From Candidatus Zixiibacteriota bacterium (GTDB lineage Bacteria > Zixibacteria > MSB-5A5 > RBG-16-43-9), in the NCBI GenBank assembly GCA_030692925.1, contig JAUYBY010000101.1, forward strand, positions 3,663 to 67,662: 64,000 nucleotides of DNA, given 5' to 3'. The notes beneath the pieces are model-generated. The model saw only the letters and a list, made by a program, of their open reading frames with translations. It did not search any database and was not told where the DNA came from. The position numbers were made by a program, and so were the translations under genes. Of this stretch, positions 12,301 through 58,458 are shown piece after piece (positions within the stretch are counted from its first letter, which is position 1; each line of letters opens with the position of its first letter).

Positions 12301-12319
12301 TAAAAGAAAGGAACTCAAA

Positions 12320-14059: not shown

Positions 14060-14277
14060 AGTTTTTGTAGGGACAGAACACTGTTCTGTCCTTACATTTA
14101 TATCAATAAGAATGGAAGGCTGAAGCCTTCCGCTACACAAGAAATGTAGCGGAGGTCTTCAGACCTCCATCTTCTAGTAGACGTAGAGCGGCCCTTTCAG
14201 GGTCGCCAAAATATAAAGCGATGCTAAAAGTCTCAAGACCTTGACGGCCTCGCACTACGTCTTAACCCCTCCCCTAC

Positions 14278-14312
14278 AAAAAAAATCAGGGTGGAGATTT
14301 TATCTCCACCCT
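14278..14312 (-). terminator. rho-independent terminator for OMP gene (between convergent genes)
   Basis: stem cagggtggaga/tctccaccctg with A-run on plus strand (= T-run on minus). Confidence 0.55.
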
Positions 14313-14341
14313 GAAGTCATTAGTTCCTTAATCTGTAAGAG

Positions 14342-15553: not shown

Positions 15554-15909
15554 TCTTTCCTCCTCTTTTGTTAGATTCCATTCAGTTAGCTAACCTTTTA
15601 CTTTTATCCCATCACCTCCTTAAAGTAACCAGGTTAGAATTTGATAAATTGTTATTAAATAACTCCACCTTCTCCTTTTGTCAAGTAAAAAATCATCTTT
15701 TTTTTAAAATATCCACTCTATTTATTAGTTTGTTTACGTAGAACCAATCTTCAAGTTTGATATTTTTTTCACAAATATTAACTGCATTCACGTTTTTTTC
15801 GCTTCCGTCCGAATTTGTCCAGGATGGATCCAATCGGAGATCCATCGGATTGGTGCCCCCGCCAACGAAATTTGCCCGTTGGTCTGGAGACCAACCAGGA
15901 GCAATTTCT

Positions 15910-27780: not shown

Positions 27781-27878
<98 letters not shown>

Positions 27879-35348: not shown

Positions 35349-35630
35349 ATGGGGCTAATTTGTGTGAACGGTGTTGGAGCAACGGGGAGGACTATAAAAA
35401 GGAAACAACTAAGAAGGAGGAAAGTAGTGAGCAAAAAAGCTAAGAAAAAGAAGCGAGTTATAGAATACACCCATTGGGAATTTGACCGGGATGGGTTAAC
35501 TGCATTACTTTTTAATGGAGATGAGGAGGTAGCTGGATTTCCTATAGATGTGTTAATGGAAATTGCTCTAGAGTTCTATGAGTGGGAGAATCGGGAGTAT
35601 AAAGAAGTGAGTGGGAATGAAAAGGATTGA
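35349..35630 (+). CDS. hypothetical basic protein
   Basis: 93 aa; Lys/Arg-rich centre. Confidence 0.3.
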   Translation: MGLICVNGVGATGRTIKRKQLRRRKVVSKKAKKKKRVIEYTHWEFDRDGLTALLFNGDEEVAGFPIDVLMEIALEFYEWENREYKEVSGNEKD

Positions 35631-36450
35631 AGCCTTTCTAAAATACTTGGAAGAAATAGGTAGATCTAAGACCACCATAATTACTTATAAAGGTGTCCTG
35701 GAAGGTATATGGAAGGCTCTGGGTACTAAGATAGTCTACCCGGCTAGGTTACAGGAATACTTCTTGAGTTTAAATTTTGAAAAACCCCGGACTCTTCATA
35801 AGAAGTTAGCTGTAATCAAGTCATATTTTCAATGGCTGATAAGGACAGGAGTAGTTAAGTTGGATCCTACTCCGGACGTGGTTTTACCCCCAATCCCCTA
35901 TGATCTTCCCAAGGCAGTGGAGTATGATGAACTACAAAGAGTTATTGAAGGGATTGAGGGGGAAGAATTTATTCCGAGGAGAGACAGAGCTATATTTGAG
36001 CTGGGTTATGCTATTGGAGCTCGGGTAGGGGATTTAAGACAGGCTAATGTAGAAGACCTGGACATGGATCGAATGTTGTTTCATGCCCGGGGTAAAGGTA
36101 ATAAAGAGGCTTATATACCTTTCGGGGAGAGTGCGCGGGATGCACTACAAAAGTATTTAGAAAAGCGGACGGGCGTAGCCAATGGAGAGTCTACTGCTCT
36201 ATTCTTAAATACTGGGGGATCCCGATTAACTAATATATGGAAAATAGTGAAAAAGTATACGACTGCCACTCCCCATTCTTTCTTCCGACACAGTGCGGCC
36301 ACTCATCTACTCCAGAACGGAGCAGAACTACGAGATGTGCAGGAGTTTATGAGGCATGCTAGTCCGAATACTACTGCTTTGTATACTAAAGTAAACCCCC
36401 AGAGGTTGAGAAGTGAATATAATGCTCATCATCCAAGAGCGAGGAGGTAA
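35611..36450 (+). CDS. tyrosine recombinase, XerC/D-like
   Basis: 279 aa; R..., HxxR (FRHSAATHL), Y (TALYTKV) catalytic residues. Confidence 0.85.
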   Translation: MGMKRIEAFLKYLEEIGRSKTTIITYKGVLEGIWKALGTKIVYPARLQEYFLSLNFEKPRTLHKKLAVIKSYFQWLIRTGVVKLDPTPDVVLPPIPYDLPKAVEYDELQRVIEGIEGEEFIPRRDRAIFELGYAIGARVGDLRQANVEDLDMDRMLFHARGKGNKEAYIPFGESARDALQKYLEKRTGVANGESTALFLNTGGSRLTNIWKIVKKYTTATPHSFFRHSAATHLLQNGAELRDVQEFMRHASPNTTALYTKVNPQRLRSEYNAHHPRARR

Positions 36451-38662: not shown

Positions 38663-39217
38663 TTGATAGACAACAATGTAATTGGAGTAAAGACCCTGGA
38701 TGGGGATCGGAATGCACTATTTGAGCTCTTTGGGAAACTGCTCGGAGACGGCTACCATCTGGTTTACGTCAATGGTAATAAAAAGCATCAATTAGAACGG
38801 TGGGACTTTGGACTGGAGAGAACAGTGTTGTTTTTGCAACTGCTTAACAATACTAATATGAGAAAAGGCTGGAATGATTTGGTAAGCGAGGACCATGCGT
38901 GGGGATATGTGGTTAGTGATGGTGATAGATTTAAAGCTTTTATTGGGGAACTGCGGGAGAAAATGGCAGATAATAAAGATTGGGGAGTGCAGTATAATGA
39001 GCTGGCACTCGTTCCCGGGCAAACAACATATCAGGTTATGTGGAATATGCTCGGGGAGTTAGTCACTCTTCCTATAAATGAGAGAATTGCCCTAATCCGA
39101 GATCTGCGTATTCCTTGCTTTTGTAAAAACTGTTGGAAACGAGCTCCCTTCTTCCTGTTTAGGAAGTGGTGTCGATATGTATTTAGAAGCTTTGTTAGGA
39201 GGTGGCATAAACAATAA
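38663..39217 (+). CDS. hypothetical protein
   Basis: 184 aa. Confidence 0.35.
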   Translation: MIDNNVIGVKTLDGDRNALFELFGKLLGDGYHLVYVNGNKKHQLERWDFGLERTVLFLQLLNNTNMRKGWNDLVSEDHAWGYVVSDGDRFKAFIGELREKMADNKDWGVQYNELALVPGQTTYQVMWNMLGELVTLPINERIALIRDLRIPCFCKNCWKRAPFFLFRKWCRYVFRSFVRRWHKQ

Positions 39218-40383
39218 TGGGTACTGCTGTTTGGATTATTATGGGGGTGATTATTTTTATAGGGCTTTTTTGTAAAGAGGAGGAAGCAGTGAAAAAGCTA
39301 TCAAGGGAAGAGGAGGGGACTACTACTATACCAGTAGACTTCCCACTGGCTATGGAAGCAGACGCTACTACTCCACTGAAAGATTCTCCGATAGATACTA
39401 CTATAGAATCTTTAAATACACCAGCTCCGGTTTGTGATGCTTTGGCTCATCCCGTGTTCCCCCATCTGTTGTTGTGGGGGCCCGCCGGATCGGGTAAGAC
39501 TGCACTGGCTCGGGTGTTGGCTAATGAGTTAATAAAACCCTATGGTTATGCACCTAATTTTCTAGAGTTTACTCCAATGGTTCTAAGAGAGGAAGACACT
39601 ATTGACGCTATTCTTGTTGAGATGGTAAATTATGGAACTGTACTTTTTATAGATGAGGTTCATTCGTTGCCAAGTCAGGTTGAGGAATGTCTATATAGTG
39701 TAATGCAGGATGGGGTCTTTTCAGGGAAGTATGGAACCTTTAAAATTCCACCCTTCACATTGGTGGGGGCCACGACAAAAGCGGGGTTACTACAGAAGCC
39801 ATTAAGGGATAGGTTTACACTAGAGTTAGAGCTTGACCCCACAACGCAAGAAGATTTAATACAGATTATTAGGGATCAAGAACAAAACATTCCAGCTCCT
39901 ACTAATTTTAGTCAATACCACGGCCAAGAAAAAATCAAAATGCTCTTGAAGTTACACATTGCAGCCTTGTCCCAGCCAGATCCTCCCTTGGATTTGACGG
40001 ATGATATTAAACAATTTTTAGCAGAGAGGGCACTGAGCAATCCCCGGATCCTTAAGCAACTTTACCGGCATATAATTGCTTATTACAAAGTAGTGAAAAA
40101 AATGACAATTGTGGAGGCTGAGGTTTGTATGAATTTATTGGGAGTTGACAATTACGGATTGCACTCTTCCGACCGAAGAGTAATAAAAGCACTATTAAGG
40201 AGAGATAACAAACCTGTCGGGGCAAAGGCACTTGCAGGTGTTGCTAATGTCTCAGTTGTAGATTTGGAAGAAGCAATTGAACCAAGGCTTGTTCTGTCGG
40301 GGATGCTAGAAAGATCTAGCCGAGGTAGAATTCTTACACCACAAGCTTTAGAAATTTACAGTGAGCAAGAGGGGGGTATATGA
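39217..40383 (+). CDS. RuvB-family AAA+ ATPase (stand-alone, mobile-element-encoded)
   Basis: Walker A GPAGSGKT, Walker B LFIDEVH, sensor region PPFTLVGATTKAGLLQKPLRDRF nearly identical in pattern to RuvB; first ~45 codons hydrophobic/acidic and may precede the true start. Confidence 0.75.
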   Translation: MGTAVWIIMGVIIFIGLFCKEEEAVKKLSREEEGTTTIPVDFPLAMEADATTPLKDSPIDTTIESLNTPAPVCDALAHPVFPHLLLWGPAGSGKTALARVLANELIKPYGYAPNFLEFTPMVLREEDTIDAILVEMVNYGTVLFIDEVHSLPSQVEECLYSVMQDGVFSGKYGTFKIPPFTLVGATTKAGLLQKPLRDRFTLELELDPTTQEDLIQIIRDQEQNIPAPTNFSQYHGQEKIKMLLKLHIAALSQPDPPLDLTDDIKQFLAERALSNPRILKQLYRHIIAYYKVVKKMTIVEAEVCMNLLGVDNYGLHSSDRRVIKALLRRDNKPVGAKALAGVANVSVVDLEEAIEPRLVLSGMLERSSRGRILTPQALEIYSEQEGGI

Positions 40384-41241: not shown

Positions 41242-41805
41242 ATGAATTACGAAAAACTACCCAAGTATTTAACTCAGGAGCAAGTCAAGACATTCTTCTC
41301 CAAAATAACTCAAAAGAGAGACTATGCTCTATTTGGAGTAATCTACAAATATGGTTTGAGGGTTTCTGAAGCTTCCTTCCTGAATTTAGAGGACATAGAC
41401 CTTGAAAGAAGGAAAATCAGGATTACCAGAGCCAAAGGTGGAATCTCAGGAGAAAGGACTATCTTCCCGGATTTACTGAATAAGCTGAAAGCTTATCTAA
41501 TGGAAAGAAAAGATAATAGTCCTGCTTTATTCACTGGAAAGAGGGGAAGACTAAAGAAAAGGATGATTCAAGCTCTTTTTTACAGGTACGCTAAAGAAGC
41601 AAATCTTGAAAGATATAGCATTCATTGTCTGAGACATTCTATCGCTGTTCATCTCTTAGAAGATGGCCAGGGAATCGAATTTGTGCAGGATCAATTAGGA
41701 CACAGAAATATCAAAAATACTCTGATTTACTCGAAAATTACCAATCCAAGGAGGGAAGAAATTTATAGGGAGTTGGAGAATTCGAGGAAGGTTGTGAAAA
41801 TTTGA
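41242..41805 (+). CDS. tyrosine recombinase, catalytic domain only (187 aa)
   Basis: R (LRVSEA), HxLRH (HCLRHSIAVHL), Y (LIYSKI); lacks N-terminal SAM-like core-binding domain. Confidence 0.75.
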   Translation: MNYEKLPKYLTQEQVKTFFSKITQKRDYALFGVIYKYGLRVSEASFLNLEDIDLERRKIRITRAKGGISGERTIFPDLLNKLKAYLMERKDNSPALFTGKRGRLKKRMIQALFYRYAKEANLERYSIHCLRHSIAVHLLEDGQGIEFVQDQLGHRNIKNTLIYSKITNPRREEIYRELENSRKVVKI

Positions 41806-42413
41806 ATTATAGAACTGGGTTATCTGTGCAGCTAACGAGAGATATTCAGAGTTGACGAAAGCAGAAACACTTAACAGAATTGCAAACCAACTCCATGGTT
41901 CTCGCAGCTGAGTCAAGCACTAACAATGACCCGACAGAACTTTCAATAATCAAAACAAAATAATCAAGCAGTCAAGACAAAAATATTCAAAACCAAGAAG
42001 AATCGTTGAAGAAAAAATATCCAAGTGGAAGAGCAAAGAATATATGATCGGAGAAAACTAAAAGAACCCATCTGTCTAGTGCAATGTGCAGGGGATATGT
42101 GTCCTAACCTCCAATGAACAAAAGTCACTGAATCAGTTGACTCGATTGCTTATTGCCTAGTGATTTCCATCACCTATCATCCATACTGTTGAAAAGTTAT
42201 TAATTTCAACCCTAAGGGGGATCCAAGACCTACATCATAAACTTCTAGTCACGGGAATGGATCAACTCTATCCCTTTTTTCAGGATTTTTGCTACAGGTA
42301 AAAACGAGCTCAGCCCAATGTCAAATCGTGACCAAGTATTTGTTGTATTAAAATCGGTAGATTAAGAACTTAGCTGGTACGACATTTGACGACCCTTTGT
42401 AAAAGAAAGCTAT

Positions 42414-43331
42414 TTATTCATGCACTTCCTTATCTATAAACTGACTATGCCCTCCCTCGGGTACGTAAATATGGAATTTATGTGTTAGCAGTTTTGTTAT
42501 CCAGTTGAATAAGTTTTTTTGAAGTTCTTTAACCTCTTTTCTATATGGTTTTGGGTCATCCAGAAGAGAATCATGAATTTCCTTTGATAGTTCGCCAAAA
42601 CTCTTCCTCCCTATTAACGTCTTTTCCAACCATTTTATCACAGTTGAAGTCTCGAAGCTGCGTGATATTTCTTCAAAGTTTAGACAAGAGGGAACGATGT
42701 TCAACAACTTAACATCGTGCTCCGCAAATTCCGTTACCTGATCATGTAGTAACTCTTCTGGATCCTCGCAGAATGGAAAGTCATTTACAAATATACCTTG
42801 AGGCAACTTCCTTACTTCTTTGATTCTCGATTCATTCCAATCTGATGTTTCTTTGTCCGTGAGTTGCATGCTAAGTTCATTTAACAAAGCCTGATCGATG
42901 ATTTCTGAGTTTTTAATTATTGAATTTACGAAAAATATATCATCAGGTCTTACCTTTTCAGGACATGATAGGCATTCTATGTTGAACTGCATGTTGCCTA
43001 TTCCTAAACCTCTGCCAGTCATATTGGCACTACCAAACAATAATACCCCTTTATCGATCATGTACAATTTCGCATGAAGGTTTGAATTCCGAAATACCCT
43101 ACCTTTGCGTTGTGATACAATATCCGCAACACCGAGATCACTAGAGCCGCTTAAAATATCATATTTGCTCCACCTTGTAACTAGAGAAATTGTCACACGA
43201 CTTGAAATATCCTGCAATAGGTAGGTTGTTGCTTCAGACGTAGTAAAAGCTGATACAATAATAATCTCCGATTCTGCATCATCAAAAAGCTCTTTCAGTA
43301 AGCTTGCAGAATCACCGTAATGAATTGGCAT
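42414..43331 (-). CDS. PLD-family (HKD) nuclease-like protein
   Basis: 305 aa; perfect HxK(x)4D(x)6GSxN motif LHAKLYMIDKGVLLFGSAN; C-terminal ~170 aa unassigned. Confidence 0.75.
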   Translation of the reverse strand: MPIHYGDSASLLKELFDDAESEIIIVSAFTTSEATTYLLQDISSRVTISLVTRWSKYDILSGSSDLGVADIVSQRKGRVFRNSNLHAKLYMIDKGVLLFGSANMTGRGLGIGNMQFNIECLSCPEKVRPDDIFFVNSIIKNSEIIDQALLNELSMQLTDKETSDWNESRIKEVRKLPQGIFVNDFPFCEDPEELLHDQVTEFAEHDVKLLNIVPSCLNFEEISRSFETSTVIKWLEKTLIGRKSFGELSKEIHDSLLDDPKPYRKEVKELQKNLFNWITKLLTHKFHIYVPEGGHSQFIDKEVHE

Positions 43332-43350
43332 CTTGTTTCTGATTTAGATT

Positions 43351-45000
43351 TCATTCACTCCAGTAATCTTCAAAGTACTCGTAAAGCAAGTCTTGATCTG
43401 GGAAACCAATAATATTATCCCTTACATCAATGATCTTGCATTTGTCAGTCCCCCCAATCGCTGGACCTCGTATTCCTCGCCCAATCATTTGACTGTACAG
43501 AACCAAAGAAGCAGTTGGACGAGAAATAAAAACCACATCCGTTTGAGGTGCATCAAATCCTGTAGACAAAACACCATAATTGCATAAAACTCTAATATTC
43601 CCAGAACGAAAATCATCAATGATCTTCTTTCGCATATGAACAGGGGTGTCTCCATCTATGTGAGCTGCATAATAACCAAGATATAATAATACAGAACAAA
43701 TAAATTTCGAATGGTCAACGCTGCAGGCGAAAAACAATATTCTAGAACTGCTCTTTAGCTCTATGTCAATTCTTTTTATGATTTCAAGATTTCGAAGGTC
43801 ATCTTTGCCTAGATTAATCAGAAATCCAGAAGGAAGATCATATAGCGTTTCCAAGTTCTTACGCTCTTTTGCAGTTAACTCATATGTTCTATTAGTAAGC
43901 AAAGGCTCAAGGCTAATCTTAGCCAATATCTGCTTCTCGCGCAACCATTCAATGACTGATTTGGCTTCAGGTGGAGTTATTGATATGATTCTTTTAAAAA
44001 AGAAAGAAGCTAGTTCCTCATTTTCCTCTAATTCAGATGAACTTCTTCCAGGAGTTGCTGTTAGTCCAATAACCTGAGTATCTGATCCCATTAATGCTTT
44101 GGTTACTTCCTTATAAGTCGGGGCAATTACTTTATGTGCTTCGTCCACAACAATCAACTTAACCCGCTCCTTAATTTCATTGAATGGAACCCTATTACGT
44201 CTTAATAGAGAATAGAGCCCCTGGAAACTAGCCACTATAAAGCTTGTATGGTTTGATTCATAGGGTAGGGTGCTATTTCTTCCCCAGCACCTATATAGGT
44301 AAATAGGACGATCTGCCACGTGCACCCAAACATCTTTAAAACACTCAAGTGATTGCTCACAAAGTTCTTGAGAATGAGCAAGCCAAAGAATGATTCCATT
44401 ATTGCCTATATTTTTTATCTGTTGCGTCACGATTTCCATAGAAGTCCTGGTCTTTCCTGACCCGGTAGGCATCTGTATTACAAATCTCGAACGTGGCTTT
44501 GTCAACTCTATCATGGAACTACTAAAGACTGAGTATTGATAGTCCATCAAGGACTTGAAGGGTTTCATAATTGGTGTAAGAAATTCGCACGTTGGGTAAT
44601 CTGCCCGTTTAACAGGCATAAAGTGATCGGGTAAGTGGGCCCATTTCAAAAAATCTCTACAAAACTCTTCCTTTTGCCAGCCGAGAAAGACTAATTGACT
44701 TATGCTCTCATCAAATGTTTTATTCTCATCATAATATCCCAGAGTTTTACAGAGATCCTGCAATTTTTCCTTTGGTAGCTGATTAAGAAGTGTGAACATG
44801 AACTTTTTATCGCTTAAAATATCTGACGGAGCAAAGGCATTAAAGAGCTTGATAAGGTTTTCTTTTCTGAATAGTTCTGTTGGGTCATGATCCTCACCCA
44901 ACAAAATGGGTACTAAGGTTTCAAACCTATCAAAGCTCTGTTCGCCAATTATGCCCTCCAATTGTCGTTTATTTAAGAACTGCCAAATCATGAGGCTCAA
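43351..45000 (-). CDS. SF2 helicase, type III restriction Res-subunit-like (DEAH)
   Basis: 549 aa; motif I QMPTGSGKT, II VVDEAH, III GLTATPGR, VI QMIGRGIRG; ~170-aa N-terminal unassigned domain. Confidence 0.85.
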   Translation of the reverse strand: MSLMIWQFLNKRQLEGIIGEQSFDRFETLVPILLGEDHDPTELFRKENLIKLFNAFAPSDILSDKKFMFTLLNQLPKEKLQDLCKTLGYYDENKTFDESISQLVFLGWQKEEFCRDFLKWAHLPDHFMPVKRADYPTCEFLTPIMKPFKSLMDYQYSVFSSSMIELTKPRSRFVIQMPTGSGKTRTSMEIVTQQIKNIGNNGIILWLAHSQELCEQSLECFKDVWVHVADRPIYLYRCWGRNSTLPYESNHTSFIVASFQGLYSLLRRNRVPFNEIKERVKLIVVDEAHKVIAPTYKEVTKALMGSDTQVIGLTATPGRSSSELEENEELASFFFKRIISITPPEAKSVIEWLREKQILAKISLEPLLTNRTYELTAKERKNLETLYDLPSGFLINLGKDDLRNLEIIKRIDIELKSSSRILFFACSVDHSKFICSVLLYLGYYAAHIDGDTPVHMRKKIIDDFRSGNIRVLCNYGVLSTGFDAPQTDVVFISRPTASLVLYSQMIGRGIRGPAIGGTDKCKIIDVRDNIIGFPDQDLLYEYFEDYWSE

Positions 45001-45639
45001 TCAACCTTCATCTAAGTAGTTTTGCAGAATAGTACCCCAATTAAATAATAAGGTGTCTAGGTAGTTATCGGGTGGCATATCAGAAGAGTTGTCAAATAAT
45101 CTCTGCGACCTTGAAAAAGCAAGAAGCAATGAGTTCATTATTTCCAGTAATTCTCTTGATATTCGTTCCCCATTTGACACACTTCTATCATTAAGCAACT
45201 GAACCCTTAGATTATTCAGCCTATTATAAAATGCGTGGCCAGTATTTAGGATAATTTTATCGCGCCCTCCTTGCCCCTCCGTCAAGAAAAACAGAGGACT
45301 TCTTAACTCTGACTCTTCGTAGATGTAATCCCGTGGGTCATTCCTAGCCTTAACAATAGCACTTTTTTGGATGCTCACATCTTTTGAAACTCCTTTTGAG
45401 GTTTCGCATCGCTTATCGAGCCATTCTCTTATCACTTCTTCGTGCTGTGTAAGAATATTCTGGACTACTGCGAAAGTCTTTTCAGCTAAAGAAATCCCCT
45501 TTCTAGTGGCTATCAGCTTCTTACTTTTAGTATCATAAAAATGCTTACGTATATCTAAGGTACGTATACCCTTAAATTCGGATAATTGGAAGACAAGGGT
45601 AGATTTCTTGGTGCCTACGGCTGCTAGAATCTTGTTCAT
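45001..45639 (-). CDS. hypothetical protein sharing a C-terminal motif with the GHKL ATPase
   Basis: 212 aa; C-terminus DNYLDTLLFNWGTILQNYLD parallels GHKL protein C-terminus DRFIETLRLNWGFYLNSYLD; start overlaps GHKL stop (ATGA). Confidence 0.5.
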   Translation of the reverse strand: MNKILAAVGTKKSTLVFQLSEFKGIRTLDIRKHFYDTKSKKLIATRKGISLAEKTFAVVQNILTQHEEVIREWLDKRCETSKGVSKDVSIQKSAIVKARNDPRDYIYEESELRSPLFFLTEGQGGRDKIILNTGHAFYNRLNNLRVQLLNDRSVSNGERISRELLEIMNSLLLAFSRSQRLFDNSSDMPPDNYLDTLLFNWGTILQNYLDEG

Positions 45640-47333
45640 TTCCTCTCACCCTCCTCATGAAGCCAGGTATCCAAATAGCTATTTAAGTAAAAACCCCAGT
45701 TCAGCCTAAGGGTTTCAATGAATCTATCAGCAGTCCAAGTTTGACCGCTTTCGAATTTTGCCTCTGCCTTTGAGTAAGATATTAATAATAAATCGATAAG
45801 ACTCTTTAGCTTCCTGGACTCTACCGTGCTTTCACCTGAGATTTCTAACCTGCCAACTATCTTGTAAAGGGTTTCCATGAACAGATGCCTGCAGTTATAC
45901 ATGATAACATCAGACCCCCCTAAGTGATTCGTCTCAAAAAACTCCGGCCCTTTCCAATCTTCATCAATAATTGTAAAAGGTTGGCTAGAAAACTTGATGG
46001 CCCAAGCGGCCTTCTTTTGCTCTGATTCATCCTTTTTGACTTCATCAACAAGTTTCTTCGCCTCTTCGTCTCGAACCTTGTCTTTATCAATTGCACTTTT
46101 ATCAGTTTTGGTTAAAGCGGCAGTATTTTCTGCTTCCTCATGGCCGGTTAATAGGCCTTCTCCACTTTCTTCCCTTTGTTTTTTTCTCGCATCGATATCT
46201 GCTTCTGCCCAGACATCCCTAACTTTCTCTACAGCCGTTTTTCTAGTTGGGGTAATCTGTTCATATATCGCTTGTTTTAGCTCGGGCGCAGGAACGGCAC
46301 CTCGTTTTATATTTTTCACCGTAAATGCTCGATCTAAACAAGCTTTAAATGAAATTTCGCAACCCCACCATCTGTCGATTTCGGTGAATTTTTCTCCAGG
46401 CCAATAGGGGATATGTCCAAAAAACACTTCGCGATCATTCCTGAGAATTGTAATTCCTTCATTTCTGTCAATATATCTTATCCTAGCTATGTGTGATCCT
46501 CCAGAACCTTTTTGAGGTCGAAAACTCTCATCTATTAGACTCATACGAATTTCGATTGTGGATTCATCTGGTGCACCAGGAGGTTTATCAATATTAGGAA
46601 CCGGCCAATTCATCTTTATGGGTTGATATTCATATGCAGGGGGGTCGTCAGGGAACGCAGTGTTCTTTGTTGTCACGTATAGAGGATCGATAGCTTTTAC
46701 CTCCTCACCATTCACCTCAATCTTGAATCCCTTCCAAATAAACTTGCGATAAGCACGACCAAACCATATTTTCATTTCTTGAAGTATCTCATCGGCATCA
46801 CAAGGTTGCCTGTCGTATTTTTCCCAAACTACGATGGTTCCTGATTTTTCACCTGTTAGCCTTTGATAATCCCTGGGCAATTCCCTTACACGAGGCTCTG
46901 GGATATGTTCCATTTTAGGGGGTTCCGAAGTAATCTCATCAAGATCAACATATGTCCATAACCAACTCTCACTATTCTTTTCTTTTGAGAATATTTCTAC
47001 CCGCCGACATTGATTGATGGCTGCCAAGGTCATACCAACTCCAAACCGTCCTATTCCTGATCTATCGTTATAACGGGTCGAATATCCAAGCTGCATACAT
47101 CTATGTAAAACATCTGCTCGCATTCCGTAACCATCGTCACCAAAGACTATTCTTTCGACAACACCATAAGAATTCTTTCTTCCTGTTATAGTGTAGAGTA
47201 ACTTGATTTTTACAACGGTAGCATCTGCTTGTATGGAATTGTCTACAACTTCTCCATATGCGCTATATGTGTCAAAATCCGAATTTCTCATTGATAATAA
47301 CGCCGTGGCTTCATTGACGAGCCTGACATCCAT
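45636..47333 (-). CDS. MORC/MutL-like GHKL ATPase
   Basis: 565 aa; Bergerat motifs I EVVDNSIQADA, II FGDDGYGM, III GRFGVGM. Confidence 0.8.
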   Translation of the reverse strand: MDVRLVNEATALLSMRNSDFDTYSAYGEVVDNSIQADATVVKIKLLYTITGRKNSYGVVERIVFGDDGYGMRADVLHRCMQLGYSTRYNDRSGIGRFGVGMTLAAINQCRRVEIFSKEKNSESWLWTYVDLDEITSEPPKMEHIPEPRVRELPRDYQRLTGEKSGTIVVWEKYDRQPCDADEILQEMKIWFGRAYRKFIWKGFKIEVNGEEVKAIDPLYVTTKNTAFPDDPPAYEYQPIKMNWPVPNIDKPPGAPDESTIEIRMSLIDESFRPQKGSGGSHIARIRYIDRNEGITILRNDREVFFGHIPYWPGEKFTEIDRWWGCEISFKACLDRAFTVKNIKRGAVPAPELKQAIYEQITPTRKTAVEKVRDVWAEADIDARKKQREESGEGLLTGHEEAENTAALTKTDKSAIDKDKVRDEEAKKLVDEVKKDESEQKKAAWAIKFSSQPFTIIDEDWKGPEFFETNHLGGSDVIMYNCRHLFMETLYKIVGRLEISGESTVESRKLKSLIDLLLISYSKAEAKFESGQTWTADRFIETLRLNWGFYLNSYLDTWLHEEGERK

Positions 47334-47360: not shown

Positions 47361-48587
47361 TTATGTTGGCAGCATACTTGATTGTTTCATTACTATATAC
47401 TTATCTAAAAAGTCCAATCCTTCCTCGAAATTATCGAAATCTGCATCTGAAATCTCGTGGAGCATTTTAAAGTATCTGGCAACTTCTTTGTCTGTAAGGG
47501 ATTTTTCGTCTACAAAGATTATAATTTTGCCTAAAGCCTTCGCAAAACCTAACTCACTCGCCAAAGCAAATCCACTTGGGTTATCTGCTTCGAGATAAGC
47601 AAAAATACAATCACAGTTTTTTATTGCCTCTAAATCCCAAAACGTGTATTCCTTTTCGCCCTGGAAACCGTGACTCCTAGGATCCAAAAAATGTATATTT
47701 GGGTATCTGTTGATAATTGCGTCTTGCCACTTAGTGTAAAATCCTCCTGCTAGGTAGATTGACAATTTCTTTTTCTGATCAATGACATTAACCCTGTTAT
47801 GTTGCATATTTTTCGATGCTGAAAGCTCTTTAACATTATTAGAACTATGAGCCTTTGACCTAAGTCTTGCTAAGGCCATTGGAAATGGCACTCTCATTGC
47901 TCTTGAATAGAATTCGTACCTTCTTGCAATGAAAAACAAGGATAAAACAGCTGGGATTAACAGGCTTAAAATATTTAGTTCAAAGTTTACAGATATTATG
48001 CTGAATCTGTGTAATAAGTATATGCCAAGTTGAATTATCACCATCATTATTAAAATTGTTGAGATACCCAAATTGAAGAGCGATATAAACATGAATCTAT
48101 GGACTATATGGATATCGTCACTAGCAATCGTCATTGCGATGCTTCTCATAGAATGAACGACTGTTTTGTTTGATGTCTCTGATCGTTGATTACCGACATC
48201 AAGCTGCATTAGATCACGAAATGCTCTGAAATCATCACTTTCGATAATGCTTCCAAGTAGTTCATCGTCTGATTTTAAATTCCAGGATTTTGGTATAAGA
48301 AACTTAAAAGCTCTTACCTTTTTTTGCAGGTTGATGAGATAATTTCCGAGGTTGATAATAACTACATTCCCAAAACTTATTACAAAATGACCCGATATAT
48401 AGCTCAATAATATCATCAGGAACCATTCAAATGAACTTGAAGGCGGAAATAATGAGAGAACACCAATTCTAACAGGCGAACCCAAGATATACGACAAAGA
48501 CAGCACTAATAACAAACCAGGAACAAGGGTTCCTATGATCTCATTAAAAAATCTTTCTAGTGTCTCGATTAGCTCACTTGACCTCAT
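47361..48587 (-). CDS. multi-TM protein with C-terminal nucleoside 2-deoxyribosyltransferase-like (NDT/Rcl-fold) domain
   Basis: 408 aa; ~5 TM helices in first 230 aa; C-terminal IYLAGGF ... CDCIFAYL ... ASELGFAKALGKIII matches NDT-family YLAGPF / ELG(Y/F)A motifs. Confidence 0.55.
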   Translation of the reverse strand: MRSSELIETLERFFNEIIGTLVPGLLLVLSLSYILGSPVRIGVLSLFPPSSSFEWFLMILLSYISGHFVISFGNVVIINLGNYLINLQKKVRAFKFLIPKSWNLKSDDELLGSIIESDDFRAFRDLMQLDVGNQRSETSNKTVVHSMRSIAMTIASDDIHIVHRFMFISLFNLGISTILIMMVIIQLGIYLLHRFSIISVNFELNILSLLIPAVLSLFFIARRYEFYSRAMRVPFPMALARLRSKAHSSNNVKELSASKNMQHNRVNVIDQKKKLSIYLAGGFYTKWQDAIINRYPNIHFLDPRSHGFQGEKEYTFWDLEAIKNCDCIFAYLEADNPSGFALASELGFAKALGKIIIFVDEKSLTDKEVARYFKMLHEISDADFDNFEEGLDFLDKYIVMKQSSMLPT

Positions 48588-48594
48588 AAGATAT

Positions 48595-49395
48595 CTACAA
48601 GTAACATATTAGACAGGGAGGATCTGAACCTTCATCTTCCAGCATTTTTTCCAGAGCTTCAGCAAGAGTTTTGCCTTTCGATTCTGATGACTTTCTGACA
48701 AGCGTTTTCTCAAAATCTTCGAGTATTTGCTCTCTTCTCTGAATCAGCTCACTCAGTGATTCCCCTTGATTCCAATAGAAAGTACGACCATCACCGTGTG
48801 ATGTCTCATATCTCATGGCCTCTTTAAAAAGATCCGGATGCTCCTCAGCTAACCTAATCCATTCGTACTTTCTCTGAAAAAAACAGAAATAGCATCCCGA
48901 CCGAGATCTCCAACGATAATAGCTAGGCATACCTATACCGCTATCTCCAAGCAGACGAAAGATGTCTTTCTTAACAAGACCTGCCTCTTTAAATGGGTAG
49001 ACTGGCTTGATATTCGGTTTAGTGGATATGTAGCCAGTTCGATCTTCGTCTGCTCTAATTCCTATATAACTGAAAATCGTATCATCGCCAGCGTACTTCT
49101 CAAAGGGAACAATTTTCAACTGTTTTGTGCACCATCGAGCTTTAACCGAAGGCAAATACCCACCATATACCTGTAACCAGTGATCAAAGCCTCGTTCAGA
49201 GCTCAAATGCGTGATCTTTATACCTAATCTAGCTTCCAAGCGCACAAGGAATTCGTAAGTTTCGGGCAGTTCTTTGTGAGTGTCGCAAAACACGTATTCC
49301 AGCTGTGGAACTTTTTTGTGCATATAAACGGCCAAAGCCGCACTATCCTTACCACCCGAGAGAGATAGTATGTGGCGAACCTTCTCTTTAGTCAT
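48595..49395 (-). CDS. PAPS-reductase-family PP-loop ATP pyrophosphatase
   Basis: 266 aa; PP-loop SLSGGKDSAAL; ARWCTKQLK and C-terminal Cys cluster as in DndC/SspD/BrxP-type enzymes. Confidence 0.75.
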   Translation of the reverse strand: MTKEKVRHILSLSGGKDSAALAVYMHKKVPQLEYVFCDTHKELPETYEFLVRLEARLGIKITHLSSERGFDHWLQVYGGYLPSVKARWCTKQLKIVPFEKYAGDDTIFSYIGIRADEDRTGYISTKPNIKPVYPFKEAGLVKKDIFRLLGDSGIGMPSYYRWRSRSGCYFCFFQRKYEWIRLAEEHPDLFKEAMRYETSHGDGRTFYWNQGESLSELIQRREQILEDFEKTLVRKSSESKGKTLAEALEKMLEDEGSDPPCLICYL

Positions 49396-50812
49396 GAACT
49401 TTCTCGCTCTCCTCTTTTTGAGACTCTAGATCTGTATTGCTTTTATCATCCTTGCGATTATCTCTGCAAAGTACTTTTTCTATCATGGAAATGATCACGG
49501 GTTTTATAAGCTTCTCATTATATCTCAGATTTTCGTCATGGAGTATTTGCTCAGCAATTTCATTTATTTTATCCTTCTGGTCTAACTCAGTCCAGATGAC
49601 CTCTCTCATCTCCTTACCGTCGGGAAGAGTGAGAGTAACTCTTCTTACATCAAAACCGTCCAACTTTGCTCTTGAAAGCTCGTCTTGTAAGGCTTCCAGA
49701 TTAGTGAACCTTCTAACAAGCTCGCTCAGTCTTGCTTCAAAACTCAGAACATCGTCGTCAGTCCAAAACCTAGGGGGCTTATCGGCCACAACCATAAGAA
49801 GTGCTTCTAACCATTTGGTATCATCTATTTCCTCATTCGCAGCAGCTAGGACAAAGCTCTTCAAACAAGGATCGAGGACGCGGTCCTTTATATAGTGAGT
49901 TCTAACCTTAAGGTTTCCTCTCAACCTTTCTAAATCAGATCCTAAGGCAAAGGCGCTATGAAGCAATTCCCTGCAGTGCATAAGAAGGTCCGAATAAGCA
50001 CTCTGGATTTCTTGCAGAACTTTGTACAATTTTTGCCTGAAATCTCTTGCTACTTGACTATCATAAGTCACATCAGCATTTGATAATACTACTCCACATG
50101 CTTGCGGCAAGGCGACAAAAAGCAGATTATCCGGCTCCGTTTCGGTGAGAAGAGCACGTCTGACAGATATTGCCTCCTGGCTCAAGCGATTTGTGCTCAG
50201 AGTGTAGGGGGGCAACTTTCTTACTATTGCTATCAAAGGTTTTACAACTCCTAATAGGGTGGCATTCCAAACCTTATCAGCTCTAGTGTAAGAGGAATTG
50301 AATAGACCTTCTTGCAGTTCCTTGAATATACTAGCATTGACTCCGGACATTTTAAGGCTCTTTACACTGAACCTCACAGGATTTCTGACTAAAAGTTCAA
50401 AATGCTCTACTCCAAGCACAGGTATGAATGCGCCGTCAAGATAAAGGGTCAAATCTTCGCTGTGAGATAGAAGAACTGCTGCCAATAATACAGGAATGCA
50501 TCCTTGCTTAACGCCGTACGGTGGAGCCTCAAGTATTTGTATTAACATGTTTATTGACTTCGGCGCGTCAGTTGCCGATAGACAAAAATCTTCAATAGCC
50601 TTCCACACCTCGTAAACATCACTCTTTTCATTGGGATTTACAAAGTACCACTTATCCTTGTTCCTCCTGTAGATACCGGTTTGAGCAAATAGACTTTCAA
50701 AGATGCTACACTCAGATCCATTTCCTACTAATCCCAGTCGTTCCTTTCCTTCGTTGGTGATCATTGCTTCTATCAACTTTCGTCTAGCCTGCATCCCCTG
50801 CGATGTTAGCAA
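49388..50812 (-). CDS. hypothetical protein (474 aa) in PP-loop operon
   Basis: overlaps PP-loop gene start by 8 bp; no recognisable motif. Confidence 0.5.
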   Translation of the reverse strand: MLTSQGMQARRKLIEAMITNEGKERLGLVGNGSECSIFESLFAQTGIYRRNKDKWYFVNPNEKSDVYEVWKAIEDFCLSATDAPKSINMLIQILEAPPYGVKQGCIPVLLAAVLLSHSEDLTLYLDGAFIPVLGVEHFELLVRNPVRFSVKSLKMSGVNASIFKELQEGLFNSSYTRADKVWNATLLGVVKPLIAIVRKLPPYTLSTNRLSQEAISVRRALLTETEPDNLLFVALPQACGVVLSNADVTYDSQVARDFRQKLYKVLQEIQSAYSDLLMHCRELLHSAFALGSDLERLRGNLKVRTHYIKDRVLDPCLKSFVLAAANEEIDDTKWLEALLMVVADKPPRFWTDDDVLSFEARLSELVRRFTNLEALQDELSRAKLDGFDVRRVTLTLPDGKEMREVIWTELDQKDKINEIAEQILHDENLRYNEKLIKPVIISMIEKVLCRDNRKDDKSNTDLESQKEESEKVHD

Positions 50813-50902
50813 TCTTCGATTTATGAGTTCGTTCCAGAGTCGAAGGCCCTTATGATAGACATGGTCACTGATATCGGATAGTAGTCTATTAAAGTATCTA
50901 TT

Positions 50903-52906
50903 TTAATCAAGTTTCTTCTGTCTACCTTTTATCCAATAAGTGAAATTAGTTAGTGAATCATCGAAAGAATGTGACAGAGCCTGGTCCAATAGTCGCATGG
51001 CACTAATCAGACGTTGCTTAACCTCATTTCTGGCGACTCCGTCGGTTCTCAATTGAGGTGCGTTCTCCTGGATTCTTTTTAATGCCACATATTCATTAGA
51101 TGCTAGTCTCAGAGCTTCAAGGTCTCTAGCACAGATAACAATAAGTGGTCTAAAATCTTGGGTCTGTGCTGGCACCTCCCGCAATTCCGCTTTATCACCT
51201 ACCCAATAACAAATCAATCCGTCGCTCTCGAACTCCTGGCATTTGCTATTCTTTATGTTAGCAACTCTATCGAAGTATTGTCTCTCGAAATAGCGAACCG
51301 TGCCCGTCAGATAACTGTGACGCCTTGCAACTACAGGAGCTAGAGGATAATGCTGATTCAACAAATCCGATAGAGAAGGAGTCATGGTAACAGTCTGTTC
51401 GGCGATTTCTCTCTCTATATCAAAATCAGACCCTTGCCATATCCTTAGCTCATCGAGTTGCCTTCGAAGTGTCACAAAACCTTTGTCCACAAGGACGTCC
51501 ACGACTTTTTTCCAATGGGACAGTTCTTTTGCATTTCTAGGATCATCACACAGGGCAAAAGCAACTAGCTGAAGAGAAGCCCTAAGTGGTCCTGAAGTCG
51601 AGATAAGGTTCAGTATACCAATTGTTTTTAAGGCTACAAAAACATCAGGATCAAGGTGTTTAGCATCCAAGATACTTTCCTGAATTTCAACCCAACGCTG
51701 ATAATTAGGTCGCCTAGATATTGTCATTCCTGCCGATTCAATGAAGTAATCATATATGCGGTCTAACTTCAGGGTTGGGAGCTTAGTATTGTCAAACGAA
51801 TACTCGTTTAAGAAACTCGCAAAAGAGTGGGGCTCCTGGCTAGCCAAAAATGTGAACAGTGTTCGATCGTTCTGGGCATAGCGGCTGCATAGAATCGGCA
51901 ACGCTAGAGCGGCCACCGGGTGAAATGGATAAATAGAAGCAATGTTGTCAGAAGAAATGCCATGAAAGATGTTGCTTTCTTTAAAAACGGTCAACCATAT
52001 CCGAGACCATTTTCTTATGGACGAGCAGAGATTATTTGTGGTCGTATTTGTGATTGCTTGTCCTATTACCTTTATTGTTTGTCCAGGGGACTCGATCCAT
52101 GGAATATCTTCAAAGCGACCTTGAATTTTAGCCCATTCGTTTCTCTGCGCCGCACTGAGACCGTGGGCATAGTCCGCAAAGGATTGATGAAGGAGTCCAA
52201 ACAGGAAAACCCTTGATTCGCCGCTCGTGGAAAAAGACTCGGCTATTTGTTGGAGAACATAAAGATCCTCAACCGATTGACTGAGAGCTGCGGATTCTAG
52301 GCTTTTGCCGAGCTCATCTATGATCAGCAATATTCCGTTGTTAGCGCTATCGGCTACCTTTTGTATAATATCGATTAATTTCTGATCAGTGATTTTCTCT
52401 CCGTAACCTATTTTCTTTCTTAATTTGTCAAGCTCAAATAGGACCCCGGGTTTTTTCCCTCTCTTTTTCTGCCAAAAAAGTTGTGTTCCGCGCAGAAGCG
52501 CTTTTATAATAGTAGTTCTGATCGATTCGCGCTGCGCCGTTGCAACCGCTCTAATAAGTCCCTCTTTGGGGATTTTATCTGTCCAAGAATCACAGAGCTC
52601 AGAGTCTGCCTCCCGAAGAATCTGCAGCGCATTTGTGTGAATTCTCTCTGTAGTGGGAGAACACAGAGCGGTTAGAAAATGCGCAAAAGCTGATTTCCCA
52701 GTTCCGTAGACTCCAGTTAATGTCCAGGCACTGACCGCACGCGGTGAAGAAAAAGATTCAAGGAATCTTCGAGTCGTTTCAAGGGCTCTAGCAGTTGGAA
52801 TATATCCCACGATACTATCAGGGACTTCTAAGTCGCGCTCGAGATTTACGGAGCGTACATACCTACGTCGAATCGTAATATATCTTGAAAGCTGTTGCAT
52901 CCTCAC
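50903..52906 (-). CDS. large P-loop NTPase
   Basis: 667 aa; Walker A GVYGTGKS, Walker B LLIIDELGK; family not assignable by eye. Confidence 0.7.
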   Translation of the reverse strand: MRMQQLSRYITIRRRYVRSVNLERDLEVPDSIVGYIPTARALETTRRFLESFSSPRAVSAWTLTGVYGTGKSAFAHFLTALCSPTTERIHTNALQILREADSELCDSWTDKIPKEGLIRAVATAQRESIRTTIIKALLRGTQLFWQKKRGKKPGVLFELDKLRKKIGYGEKITDQKLIDIIQKVADSANNGILLIIDELGKSLESAALSQSVEDLYVLQQIAESFSTSGESRVFLFGLLHQSFADYAHGLSAAQRNEWAKIQGRFEDIPWIESPGQTIKVIGQAITNTTTNNLCSSIRKWSRIWLTVFKESNIFHGISSDNIASIYPFHPVAALALPILCSRYAQNDRTLFTFLASQEPHSFASFLNEYSFDNTKLPTLKLDRIYDYFIESAGMTISRRPNYQRWVEIQESILDAKHLDPDVFVALKTIGILNLISTSGPLRASLQLVAFALCDDPRNAKELSHWKKVVDVLVDKGFVTLRRQLDELRIWQGSDFDIEREIAEQTVTMTPSLSDLLNQHYPLAPVVARRHSYLTGTVRYFERQYFDRVANIKNSKCQEFESDGLICYWVGDKAELREVPAQTQDFRPLIVICARDLEALRLASNEYVALKRIQENAPQLRTDGVARNEVKQRLISAMRLLDQALSHSFDDSLTNFTYWIKGRQKKLD

Positions 52907-53913
52907 TTTCTTTTCCTGTAATATTTTGTCAAAACTTGTTCAACTAATAGGCTAGGAGGCCTCTTAAAAGAAAACTGGATTAAACCTGCTGTCTCCGATA
53001 GAGAAATATCTGGAAAGTCTGTAGAGACCTTGTCTATGGCTTCACGGAGAGAAGGATCAGATAGTTTGAAAACGTGCCCCGGGCTTCCAATATCATACAG
53101 AAGGCGAGAAATGGAAATTGTTTTCGCACTGCTTTCAATCCGCGAGATGAAATCGAGACAACAGACAACAATAATCTCTGCAGGTAGTTCGTATTTGCTT
53201 CCCATATTGAAAGAATAATGCTTAGTATCGCCATAGTCCTGTAGGAGTCCCAAATCGGCAAAAGGACAGTCCAGCGAATCCTCACTTGGTCCTCTTAAAT
53301 TGTTATGTCTAACATACATCCGCAGAATACAATTGACATCTTTTCTAAGGGACGAGTCAGCAACTTTGCTTGATGGAAACAGTCGCTCCTTAAACTCTTT
53401 CAGGGCTGAAAACAGATCTTCAGCAGTGAATATCAGTTGATTGAATTCATTGAAAGTAAAGTACCAGGCAGTTGCTCTGCATGGAGGTTTTAGTAAACTC
53501 CACTGAAGCAGCCATAGTGATCCGGGATCTTCAAGATATGGGTCCCAACCCTTATCCCCAAGAAGCTTAACGCCAAATTCGGAAGGTACCATTTGGTGGC
53601 TTCTACCCAAAGCATCCTCCGCCTCGTCAAGCACTTTGAACGCAAAACACCAGTACCTAATGGCCTTGGCCATGTTCTTCCCGACGCCTAAAATGATATG
53701 AGCATCTTCTCTTGCGAAAATTGTGTGTTCTGTGGATGCCTTATCAAATCCCTTCTTTAGCCAACCATAACGTGGATGGAAGGTTTCATGTCTACAGAAC
53801 ATAGGAACGTTTGTCGACGAATACAGCGACGGCATATGAGCAAGAATGTCTAGTGTGGCTTTTCCTCTCAGGAAAGCACTTGTATTTGCTTTAGGCATAT
53901 TGAATCCTAACAT
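52903..53913 (-). CDS. hypothetical protein (336 aa), first gene of PP-loop operon
   Basis: 4-bp overlap with P-loop ATPase; conserved-looking N-terminal FHPRYGWLKKG. Confidence 0.5.
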   Translation of the reverse strand: MLGFNMPKANTSAFLRGKATLDILAHMPSLYSSTNVPMFCRHETFHPRYGWLKKGFDKASTEHTIFAREDAHIILGVGKNMAKAIRYWCFAFKVLDEAEDALGRSHQMVPSEFGVKLLGDKGWDPYLEDPGSLWLLQWSLLKPPCRATAWYFTFNEFNQLIFTAEDLFSALKEFKERLFPSSKVADSSLRKDVNCILRMYVRHNNLRGPSEDSLDCPFADLGLLQDYGDTKHYSFNMGSKYELPAEIIVVCCLDFISRIESSAKTISISRLLYDIGSPGHVFKLSDPSLREAIDKVSTDFPDISLSETAGLIQFSFKRPPSLLVEQVLTKYYRKRK

Positions 53914-54354
53914 TCATGCGAACTCTATTCATAGCTAATATATTCCCTGTTGAGTTAAGGTACTGTTTATCAGATTAGGTCCTATATCTTTCTAGTTTGA
54001 TCCTCTGATTCTCCCTGCTTCTATAGTCGATTATCGCGCTTGTTCTTATAACCCTAAACAGGCTACTGGAACTGGAAAAAGGCATTTCAAGAAAACTTGA
54101 TAAAATGATACTATAACAAGCTTAAACTGTCAAGATATTTCCTTCCCTTATGAACTGACTCCAGATTCGCTCATAAGATGAGTTAGATTCTAACCGTTCA
54201 AAGTATGAGTTCGTTTCTTTAATATCTTCAGCACTTAAAGGTTGAAGAAAAATTCAATTTGATTAGAATATGAGTTCTATCTCCAAAAAGTGAGCAAATT
54301 TGACATATTTTTCATCTTCTGCTAAGCTGATAAAACACAAACAGGAGGTGAAAA

Positions 54355-54971: not shown

Positions 54972-55496
54972 TTATGTTTGATCATACAAAAGCTCTATTC
55001 TTCCCCATCTACAAGAATAGAGGAATACGCCTAACTCGGGCACTGCAAAAAGGTTTCCTCCAATAATTACCAATATACTTTCAGGACAGTTGGTTTCACT
55101 ATCAGCCGATATAGCTGATTGAGTCATATTGTCCATATGACTCGGAATAGGAGTGCCATTCGGATGACTATGCCACTCGCCAACGTAATATCTTCTCCCC
55201 CCATATCTTTGCTGTAATTTGTTATAAAATGCCCTAAGACCTTTGATTCCTCTAAAAAATGAATTGTCATAGCACCTTGAGTCAGAACACAGAGGACTCG
55301 CATCGAGAACAAATGCATCAAATCCATCATCAGAATAACATCCCACTAACGACGTTCCAACTTCGTGTGGATGATGCTTTTTCCCCATCTTAAGCATCTT
55401 GTTAAAGCAAAAATGTGAAATTGAAACAGTATATCGGCCACATTTGGATTTCCACTTCAGTGGAAGCTCATTATTCATGGATATTGATTGGTCCAT
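54972..55496 (-). CDS. cap3: JAB/MPN (JAMM) metallopeptidase, CBASS Cap3-like
   Basis: 174 aa; JAMM motif EWHSHPNGTPIPSHMD (HxHx7Sx2D). Confidence 0.8.
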   Translation of the reverse strand: MDQSISMNNELPLKWKSKCGRYTVSISHFCFNKMLKMGKKHHPHEVGTSLVGCYSDDGFDAFVLDASPLCSDSRCYDNSFFRGIKGLRAFYNKLQQRYGGRRYYVGEWHSHPNGTPIPSHMDNMTQSAISADSETNCPESILVIIGGNLFAVPELGVFLYSCRWGRIELLYDQT

Positions 55497-58454: not shown

Positions 58455-58458
58455 GTTT

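Follow-up and report, generated by a model that had tools for sequence, protein, structure and literature searches.

A MORC-like ATPase, helicase and nuclease module beside phosphorothioate-writing genes: a probable restriction partner of Ssp and Dnd systems

SspBCD, together with IscS, writes the phosphorothioate (PT) mark on DNA, with SspBCD sufficing for the modification, and PT-based effectors use this mark to tell self and non-self apart (PMC8092258). As many as 83.9% of sspBCD clusters have no known restriction partner, and the authors who counted them expect that further partners exist (PMC8092258). Among the effectors already described, SspFGH and DndFGH are multi-gene and ATP-using, lie beside a PT writer, are thought to damage DNA without PT, and have a patchy distribution. 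The PbeABCD system (Xiong 2019; Rakesh, Aravind and Krishnan 2024) is likewise PT-linked, and it combines an HKD nuclease, a superfamily 2 (SF2) helicase, a dimeric ATPase that clamps DNA, and a small DNA binder. Separately, a 2008 study predicted that operons in which a MORC or paraMORC ATPase accompanies an SF2 helicase and a nuclease are restriction-modification systems (Iyer, Abhiman and Aravind 2008; PMC2292703). Here, we describe a four-gene module that has features of each of these, and which is probably an undescribed restriction partner of PT marking systems. It was found in a 64,000-nucleotide stretch of contig JAUYBY010000101.1 (positions 3,663 to 67,662, forward strand; assembly GCA_030692925.1) from a Candidatus Zixiibacteriota bacterium, with this whole stretch being termed the window and all coordinates counted from its first letter.

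The module consists of four minus-strand open reading frames (ORFs), which lie at exactly the positions given in an earlier note on this DNA, and which were identified from the ORF list and Pfam:

45636-47333, minus strand: MORC-like GHKL ATPase gene with an S5-like domain, 565 aa
45001-45639, minus strand: PC4/YdbC-type partner gene, 212 aa
43351-45000, minus strand: SF2 DEAH helicase/translocase gene, 549 aa, TTG start
42414-43331, minus strand: single-HKD phospholipase D (PLD)-family nuclease gene, 305 aa

Judging by their homologues, these are real genes and not chance ORFs, since a search with the ATPase gave over 1260 database proteins at E ≤ 1e-5, and the 120 matches listed are all near full length with 51-74% identity, save for the 100% match of the protein to itself. 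The ATPase and PC4 genes overlap by 4 bp, the TGA of the PC4 gene directly abuts the TTG of the helicase gene (an alternative ATG lies 9 nt inside this start), and a spacer of 19 nt separates the helicase and PLD genes. Two of the junctions in the earlier note are therefore as it had them, while its third, put at 1 bp, is really a 0-nt gap. More conspicuously, the four genes had been taken for a free-standing operon, and this does not hold, as they form the distal half of a co-directional array of eight genes (sspB, sspC, sspD, a 408-aa gene, GHKL, PC4, helicase, and PLD) in which neighbours either overlap or are at most 27 nt apart. The proximal half of this array comprises the following:

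52903-53913, minus strand: sspB, DUF4007 DNA-binding/nicking subunit (Pfam 1.2e-96)
49388-52906, minus strand: sspC, BrxC-like ATPase (PADLOC SspC, positions 2-650 at 1e-237 and 684-1104 at 9.2e-145), in two in-frame ORFs
48595-49395, minus strand: sspD, PAPS-reductase-type sulfur-inserting enzyme (PADLOC SspD 8.5e-113; Pfam PAPS_reduct 3.6e-13)
47361-48587, minus strand: 408-aa membrane/deoxyribosyltransferase-like gene (Pfam Nuc_deoxyri_tr2 4.7e-7, at threshold)

Here, the adjoining DUF4007, BrxC-like ATPase, and PAPS reductase genes have the make-up of an SspBCD modification module, with the caveat that sspC contains an in-frame TAA.

The same four genes recur elsewhere in the same order, in support of the earlier note's reading, and this was seen in five metagenomic homologue loci (52-57% identity) where they stand beside genes for DUF4007, the BrxC-like ATPase, and PAPS reductase, some with a cysteine desulfurase as well. 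For a wider survey, we took one genome per species, which gave 77 loci (labelled here with L and a number where they need to be told apart), and labelled the ORFs with profiles made from the window proteins. In 41 independent loci the ATPase gene is followed directly by the helicase gene, or with the PC4 gene between them (19 of the 41), and the PLD gene is present in 35, being mostly next in order and sometimes upstream or inverted. These 41 loci, 35 of them with the PLD gene, have the neighbourhood of SF2 helicase and nuclease that is described for MORC/paraMORC operons. Linkage to PT genes was counted in the 35 loci that extend at least 8 kb on both sides, with such genes being sought within 10 kb. 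SspBCD was found in 26 of them and a long PAPS reductase in six, with neither in the remaining three. The long reductase is DndC according to PADLOC (E ≤ 1e-179) and is flanked by DndD, DndA, and DndB in Pfam, which was used for labelling the intervening genes as the PADLOC scan there was dominated by redundant DndD and PbeC models. The module is hence a near-obligate neighbour of PT writers (32 of 35 loci). It abuts sspBCD with no gene between them in eight loci, and its orientation to the writer genes can be co-directional or convergent. As an internal control, we took 26 loci in which a more distant GHKL homologue occurs without the helicase gene, and these gave no Ssp linkage and four cases with DndC. 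Moreover, because dndCD and sspBCD are present in only 4.3% and 3.0% of genomes, respectively (PMC12914056), chance adjacency does not explain the linkage.

Both types of writer are served by close relatives. In a neighbour-joining tree of the ATPases, which is a rough one without support values, Dnd-linked members occupy at least three places among the Ssp-linked members and show 62-67% identity to the nearest of these. Since close relatives of the module serve Ssp and Dnd writers that differ in their motifs, what it senses is most likely the PT mark, or the lack of one, and not a writer protein or sequence motif. The bacterial carriers belong to the Clostridia, Planctomycetota, Bacteroidota, Pseudomonadota, Verrucomicrobiota, Acidobacteriota, and Poribacteria, and the archaeal ones to Nitrosopumilus, Cenarchaeum, Methanoregula, Woesearchaeota, and Thermoplasmatota. 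A scan of IMG/VR viral contigs returned no relatives of the ATPase. Cultured carriers include Rhodobacteraceae SC52, Roseivirga seohaensis SW-152, and Nitrincola alkalisediminis JCM 19317. In the first of these, all four genes are found on the mobilizable plasmid pSC52_2 (L087; CP049030.1, 326134-331053), where their annotation goes no further than 'hypothetical protein' or 'DEAD/DEAH box helicase'. Insertion sequence elements lie on both sides of this module, an IS3 copy stands between it and sspD/sspC, and the latter genes start about 6 kb past the last module gene. A predicted cmlA9 fragment is located just upstream of the plasmid module.

Several further features of these loci were noticed. 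Two ATPase-helicase modules lie by one sspBCD in a metagenome-assembled genome (MAG) of a Woesearchaeota archaeon (L023, 1-13985) and in a Rhodoferax MAG (L026, 4030-12540), which suggests duplication or stacking. A ScoMcrA-type sulfur-binding domain (SBD) fused to an HNH or NOV_C nuclease is encoded a few kilobases from the module in L001 (16474-17481) and L009 (6160-7083), a cut SBD-domain ORF stands about 9.7 kb from the ATPase gene in L003 (1-311), and an HNH_2 gene is found in L017 (16096-16989); such SBD-nuclease neighbours imply that PT-reading nucleases tend to share these loci. In three alphaproteobacterial loci (L081, L084, and L085, at about 5900-17000), members of a distant GHKL clade with about 25% identity to the window ATPase are directly beside a DndC gene. 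This DndC is confirmed by PADLOC only in L081, with ORFs of DndB, DndA, and DndD size around it and a 640-aa helicase following further on, and PT linkage may extend to the wider GHKL radiation. Split genes in L003/L021 (5681-9161 and 12295-13943), L024 (2730-6222), and L076 were not used as evidence, as they are likelier to be assembly artefacts. In L003/L021 and L076, sspC (and in L003 also the helicase gene) is shattered into several ORFs, and the break in L024 is a frame shift.

Turning to the proteins themselves, we found the ATPase to be matched by Pfam HATPase_c_3 (1.5e-20), and its motifs E28/N32, D66xGxG70, G93-G100, and G165-T166 are invariant in 58 homologues. In the predicted model, a Bergerat fold (about residues 1-200) is followed by an S5-like transducer (about residues 204-348), after which come a long helix plus a charged linker (350-450) and, at 453-560, a C-terminal domain (CTD) of around 110 residues. 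The protein thereby has the GHKL domain with intact ATP-binding motifs and the S5-fold transducer that mark the ATPase of the MORC/paraMORC operons. A sequence profile search places MORC4, MORC3, MORC2, and TopoVI-B first, and direct sequence similarity to eukaryotic MORCs is weak (E of about 1e-5, over the N-terminal 110 residues only). Telling MORC proper from paraMORC1-5 takes family-specific sequence motifs, and we call the protein MORC-like only.

The 212-aa partner, which had previously been regarded as of unknown type, is a member of the PC4/YdbC family and hence a predicted single-stranded DNA (ssDNA) binder. Pfam PC4 (PF02229) scores 31.2 bits over residues 13-59, where the cut-off is 25 (E = 1.5e-7), the same domain is called by Pfam on the orthologues in L001, L004, and L009, and the NCBI name is 'PC4/YdbC family ssDNA-binding protein'. 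While the N-terminal PC4/YdbC-type domain covers about residues 13-75, the C-terminal half is homologous to the CTD of the ATPase (BLASTP E = 2e-15, 29% identity over 117 aa). When the CTDs of 22 ATPases and 14 partner proteins are aligned together, they have the features W-GP-FF...GG...YN..H.F and NWG..L..Y in common. Neither the profile of this shared CTD nor the partner protein gave a significant match in the PDB sequence search. An exhaustive search found 203 cluster representatives of the partner, nearly all of about 200 aa and with the same two-domain layout, along with a few matches landing on ATPase C-termini. The family size is taken from this search, given that a word-indexed one returned four proteins. 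From its presence in both proteins, the shared CTD would be an assembly or docking domain that joins the PC4 protein to the ATPase.

The helicase has Pfam matches to ResIII (1.1e-23) and Helicase_C (2.9e-15), an NCBIfam match to RadD (9.5e-35), PDB matches to RadD (1.3e-21), Hef (1.1e-10), and SauUSI (2.8e-10), and PADLOC matches to mREase_IV (1.4e-19) and PbeA (1.6e-18). Conserved across 49 sequences are its motifs Q, I (PTGSGKT), II (DEAH), III (TATPGR), V, and VI (QMIGRGIRG). The RadD/Hef/SauUSI-like core spans about residues 150-530, and in front of it is a variable N-terminal stretch of about 145 aa, for which a profile found nothing significant in the PDB sequence search and no fold was recognisable. 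The nuclease, for its part, is matched by Pfam PLDc_2 (4.3e-7), and its HxK(x4)D(x6)GSxN motif is invariant in 32 homologues. An HKD domain (about residues 1-125) is joined by a helical linker to a C-terminal winged helix (about residues 215-305), and the predicted structure (mean predicted local distance difference test score, pLDDT, of 91.7) has the SauUSI nuclease domain, Nuc, NucT, BfiI, and NgoAVII as its closest folds; as a single sequence, the protein gave nothing significant in the PDB sequence search. It has the signature of a Nuc/BfiI/SauUSI-type enzyme, namely this motif within a single PLD fold that needs dimerisation, and single-HKD nucleases such as Nuc and BfiI act as dimers. 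The winged helix is of the ArsR/MarR type in the predicted model, carries an invariant DDPKPYRKxxKxL motif, and is a candidate reader of DNA or of the mark. Overall, the GHKL, DEAH helicase, and HKD motifs that the earlier note had picked out are all present in the window and conserved in the homologues, and the catalytic motifs of the three enzymes are intact.

When compared with named defence systems, the module has no fitting PADLOC or NCBIfam model, which agrees with the earlier note on this point. In kind, though not as one of the named systems, it is a Dnd-restriction variant in the sense of the note. Generic or sub-threshold matches to MzaB, BbrUII/HgiDII, PbeA, mREase_IV, DrmC, and ZacB were rejected as memberships, and so was dnd_restrict_1 (42.7 bits against a cut-off of 600). 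For SspE, no DUF262 (GmrSD_N/DndB-like) or DUF1524/HNH match was found in the four proteins or in any ORF between 42.4 and 54 kb. For DISARM, the match of DrmC to the PLD protein is weak (1.9e-6, and 32 bits in NCBIfam, where the cut-off is 133), and DrmA (the DUF1998 helicase), DrmB, and a methylase are absent. For Mza, MzaB matches the N-terminal part of the ATPase (1.5e-14) with 68 bits in NCBIfam, where the cut-off is 850, and the partner genes are lacking.

SspFGH and DndFGH share with the module the traits outlined at the start, and SspFGH, like the module, can co-occur with SspE. However, no PADLOC model for SspF, SspG, SspH, or a Dnd effector matches the module, whose domain content also differs from the published description of SspFGH. 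A Walker A motif is found in SspF and an FtsK/SpoIIIE-like C-terminus in SspH (PMC8092258), as opposed to the GHKL/MORC, PC4, SF2, and HKD proteins of the module, and no sequence relationship exists between the two sets. The module, unlike SspFGH and DndFGH, pairs with both Ssp and Dnd writers. PbeABCD is the closest functional analogue, each of its parts having an analogue in its place here, though the differences are several. The helicase here matches PbeA models over the core only, and the nuclease and helicase are fused in PbeA and separate in the module, where the HKD domain is on a 305-aa protein with its own winged helix. The Pbe ATPase is a CxC ABC ATPase and that of the module is a MORC-like GHKL protein, with no AAA_23/SMC_N or DndE match in any of the four proteins. 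In place of the small DndE-like ribbon-helix-helix binder of Pbe there is a PC4 protein, and the disordered PbeB has no counterpart. The MORC/paraMORC operons of 2008 resemble the module in that a GHKL+S5 protein is next to a (Rad25-like) SF2 helicase and a nuclease, sometimes with HKD, and that their distribution is mobile, and in architecture the module is an instance of them. They were described, however, with DNA methylases and Vsr or restriction-endonuclease-fold nucleases, and not with PT linkage, PC4, a shared CTD, or a winged helix on the nuclease. Lastly, SauUSI is a single chain that has an SRA-like reader and targets modified cytosine, in contrast to the separate proteins here, which have no SRA domain and are encoded beside a modification writer.

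Among open-access papers and bioRxiv preprints, including PMC10853773, PMC12839542, PMC12914056, PMC13069673, and PMC12988326, we found none that links GHKL, MORC, or PC4 to Ssp or Dnd, and none with an experimentally tested MORC-helicase-nuclease system. MORC and GHKL are not mentioned in a 2024 reappraisal of PT systems or in a 2026 BREX survey. The tested GHKL defence proteins that we found are the single-chain GHKL-Shedu VcSduA and, reportedly, SLFN-pAgo-GHKL fusions.

Taken as a whole, a restriction-like defence role, as proposed in the earlier note, remains the best reading, and we hold it fairly probable that the four genes supply the restriction side, or effectors, of a restriction-modification-like system based on PT, with SspBCD here and DndBCDE in other genomes as the modification half. 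In such a system, SspBCD (here assigned by homology) and a housekeeping cysteine desulfurase would first place PT on the host DNA. On ATP, GHKL+S5 ATPases form dimers that clamp or loop DNA (as discussed in PMC2292703), and the MORC-like ATPase, with its fold and intact motifs, would accordingly load on DNA as a dimeric, ATP-gated clamp. The PC4 partner could then join the ATPase through the common CTD and hold unwound or single-stranded DNA, this being an optional part, as about half of the related modules have no PC4 gene. The RadD/SauUSI-like SF2 motor, given its intact motifs, would translocate on the DNA. More speculatively, the single-HKD dimer, placed by its winged helix, may nick or cut DNA without PT marks, and PT on the host DNA may block or release the complex. 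It is also possible, though we stop short of calling it likely, that the module represents an undescribed class of PT-dependent restriction, widespread among Bacteria and Archaea, in which a MORC-type clamp reads PT independently of writer and motif and licenses the helicase-HKD pair, and to which the PC4 binder docks via a domain duplicated from the ATPase tail.

Several points weigh against our assignment. All functions given to the module are derived from homology and gene neighbourhood, and no SBD was detected in any of the four proteins. In three of the 35 loci, PT genes are absent within 10 kb, and from these the module may function by itself or together with genes that are unlinked. Moreover, sspC is prematurely stopped in the window, while all four effector genes are intact. 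A single TAA (50903-50905) breaks sspC into ORFs of 667 aa and 474 aa, and as the 30 residues past this stop still align well with the intact SspC of L011, L016, L001, and L032, the alignment identifies the TAA as a recent nonsense change, a polymorphism or minority allele, or an assembly error. If the stop is real, this genome would have no PT modification and yet carry intact effector genes.

This last point bears on an alternative that is unlikely but which we take seriously, namely that the module is a PT-sensing effector of the SspE type, needing host PT to switch on (with PT, for instance, stimulating the GHKL or helicase ATPase), nicking incoming DNA thereafter, and being harmless without PT. 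A nuclease that attacks unmarked DNA would be expected to cause harm in a cell without a working sspC, and the broken sspC next to intact effector genes thus weakly favours a PT-activated or gated mechanism. SspE works in this way and, unlike SspFGH, is non-toxic without PT (PMC8092258), and the tight linkage to PT writers fits activation by PT as well as it does restriction of unmarked DNA. On the other hand, the sspC stop is perhaps an assembly error or a polymorphism, with no decay past it, and Pfam and PADLOC scans found no DUF262-like or SBD-like PT-binding domain in the module. SspE-like genes (GmrSD_N with or without GmrSD_C) also stand between writer and module in about six loci, which speaks for complementary rather than duplicate mechanisms.

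That the module is instead an autonomous MORC-helicase-PLD defence system, independent of PT and merely co-localised with Ssp or Dnd in islands, we consider improbable. The unlinked loci are what chiefly suggest it. In L017, which has no linked PT genes, a transposase is inserted between the ATPase and helicase genes; Methanoregula L035 and the short-flanked L029 hold the module among Schlafen-type defence genes with no PT genes nearby; and L044 is also among the exceptions. In addition, the operons of Iyer et al. 2008 have methylases or no modification gene (PMC2292703). Set against this is the PT linkage of 32 of the 35 loci, which extends over many phyla and the archaea, involves two unrelated writers, often with the genes abutting, and occurs in both orientations. 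By contrast, four of the 26 loci with related GHKL genes and no helicase are PT-linked, and chance adjacency should be rare at the genome frequencies of dndCD and sspBCD already given.

It is more doubtful still that the module is a machine for maintaining or repairing PT-DNA, in which a MutL-like protein, helicase, ssDNA-binding protein, and nuclease deal with nicks or oxidative damage at PT sites. Although its composition recalls MutL-UvrD-type excision, the best named relative of the helicase is the repair helicase RadD, and PC4-family proteins bind ssDNA, the distribution of the module is patchy and horizontally mobile (in island, plasmid, and IS contexts), and most sspBCD and dndBCDE clusters are without it. 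The nuclease, too, is closest to restriction-type PLD enzymes, and the module swaps position with SspE, or accompanies it, in the same slot. Least probable by our estimate is a type IV enzyme cutting foreign DNA with PT or other modifications, for while the helicase and PLD proteins are related to the type IV SauUSI, PADLOC gives an mREase_IV match, and SBD-HNH or SBD-NOV_C genes neighbour the module in some loci, no SRA or SBD reader domain is present, and an enzyme that cuts PT-DNA would turn on the PT-marked genome of its own host, whereas the module nearly always lies beside a PT writer and serves both the Ssp and the Dnd type.

Within the window, the module sits in a tRNA-integrated defence island. 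A tRNA-Ser(CGA) gene (27781-27870) is followed by an integrase gene (27959-29074), and two further integrase genes or fragments are located at 35611-36450 and 41242-41805, which suggests a composite or repeatedly targeted integration site. Other island genes include a weak AEP-TOTE primase-like ORF (29991-31508), a sigma-54 activator (31956-33266), and a RuvB-like AAA+ gene (39217-40383). Upstream of the array there is a complete cluster resembling a type II cyclic-oligonucleotide-based antiphage signalling system (CBASS; 54972-59973, minus strand), with the following genes:

58459-59973, minus strand: SAVED-domain effector, type II CBASS
57294-58454, minus strand: SMODS cyclase, type II CBASS
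55475-57310, minus strand: E1/ThiF-like gene, type II CBASS
54972-55496, minus strand: JAB gene, type II CBASS

Both the island and the CBASS genes are as the earlier note had described, though as an argument for defence this adjacency is much weaker than that of the Ssp genes.

The 408-aa protein encoded between sspD and the ATPase gene is predicted to cross the membrane several times and has a nucleoside 2-deoxyribosyltransferase-like domain at its C-terminus. It has no PADLOC match, and no homologue was found in any of 86 related loci. By this comparison, the gene is a lineage-specific local insertion and not a conserved part of the module, and it may be an independent effector. Among regulatory patterns, we noted three:

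54105-54133, minus strand: sigma-70-like promoter pattern with the best match (11/12), upstream of sspB; may be the promoter of the entire array, by pattern only
47518-47545, minus strand: promoter-like pattern with the next-best match (10/12), about 185 nt upstream of the start codon of the ATPase gene; possible internal promoter, by pattern only
42305-42317, minus strand: terminator-like hairpin and T-run, about 97 nt past the PLD stop codon, by pattern only

Since the counts of such promoter and terminator patterns in the region are not above the shuffled expectation, these sites serve as leads only.

A partner common to Ssp and Dnd writers would fill part of the gap left by the many sspBCD clusters that lack one, and it points to direct reading of the backbone mark. 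The module would furthermore give a genetic handle on prokaryotic MORC-type ATPases, with the cultured carriers making its testing feasible. The eukaryotic relatives MORC2, MORC3, and SMCHD1 act in epigenetic silencing. If the proposed role is true, the module would be the first multi-gene prokaryotic MORC-type system, with ATPase, helicase, and nuclease, that is open to experiment, and in bacteria it would parallel those eukaryotic MORCs that act downstream of epigenetic marks.

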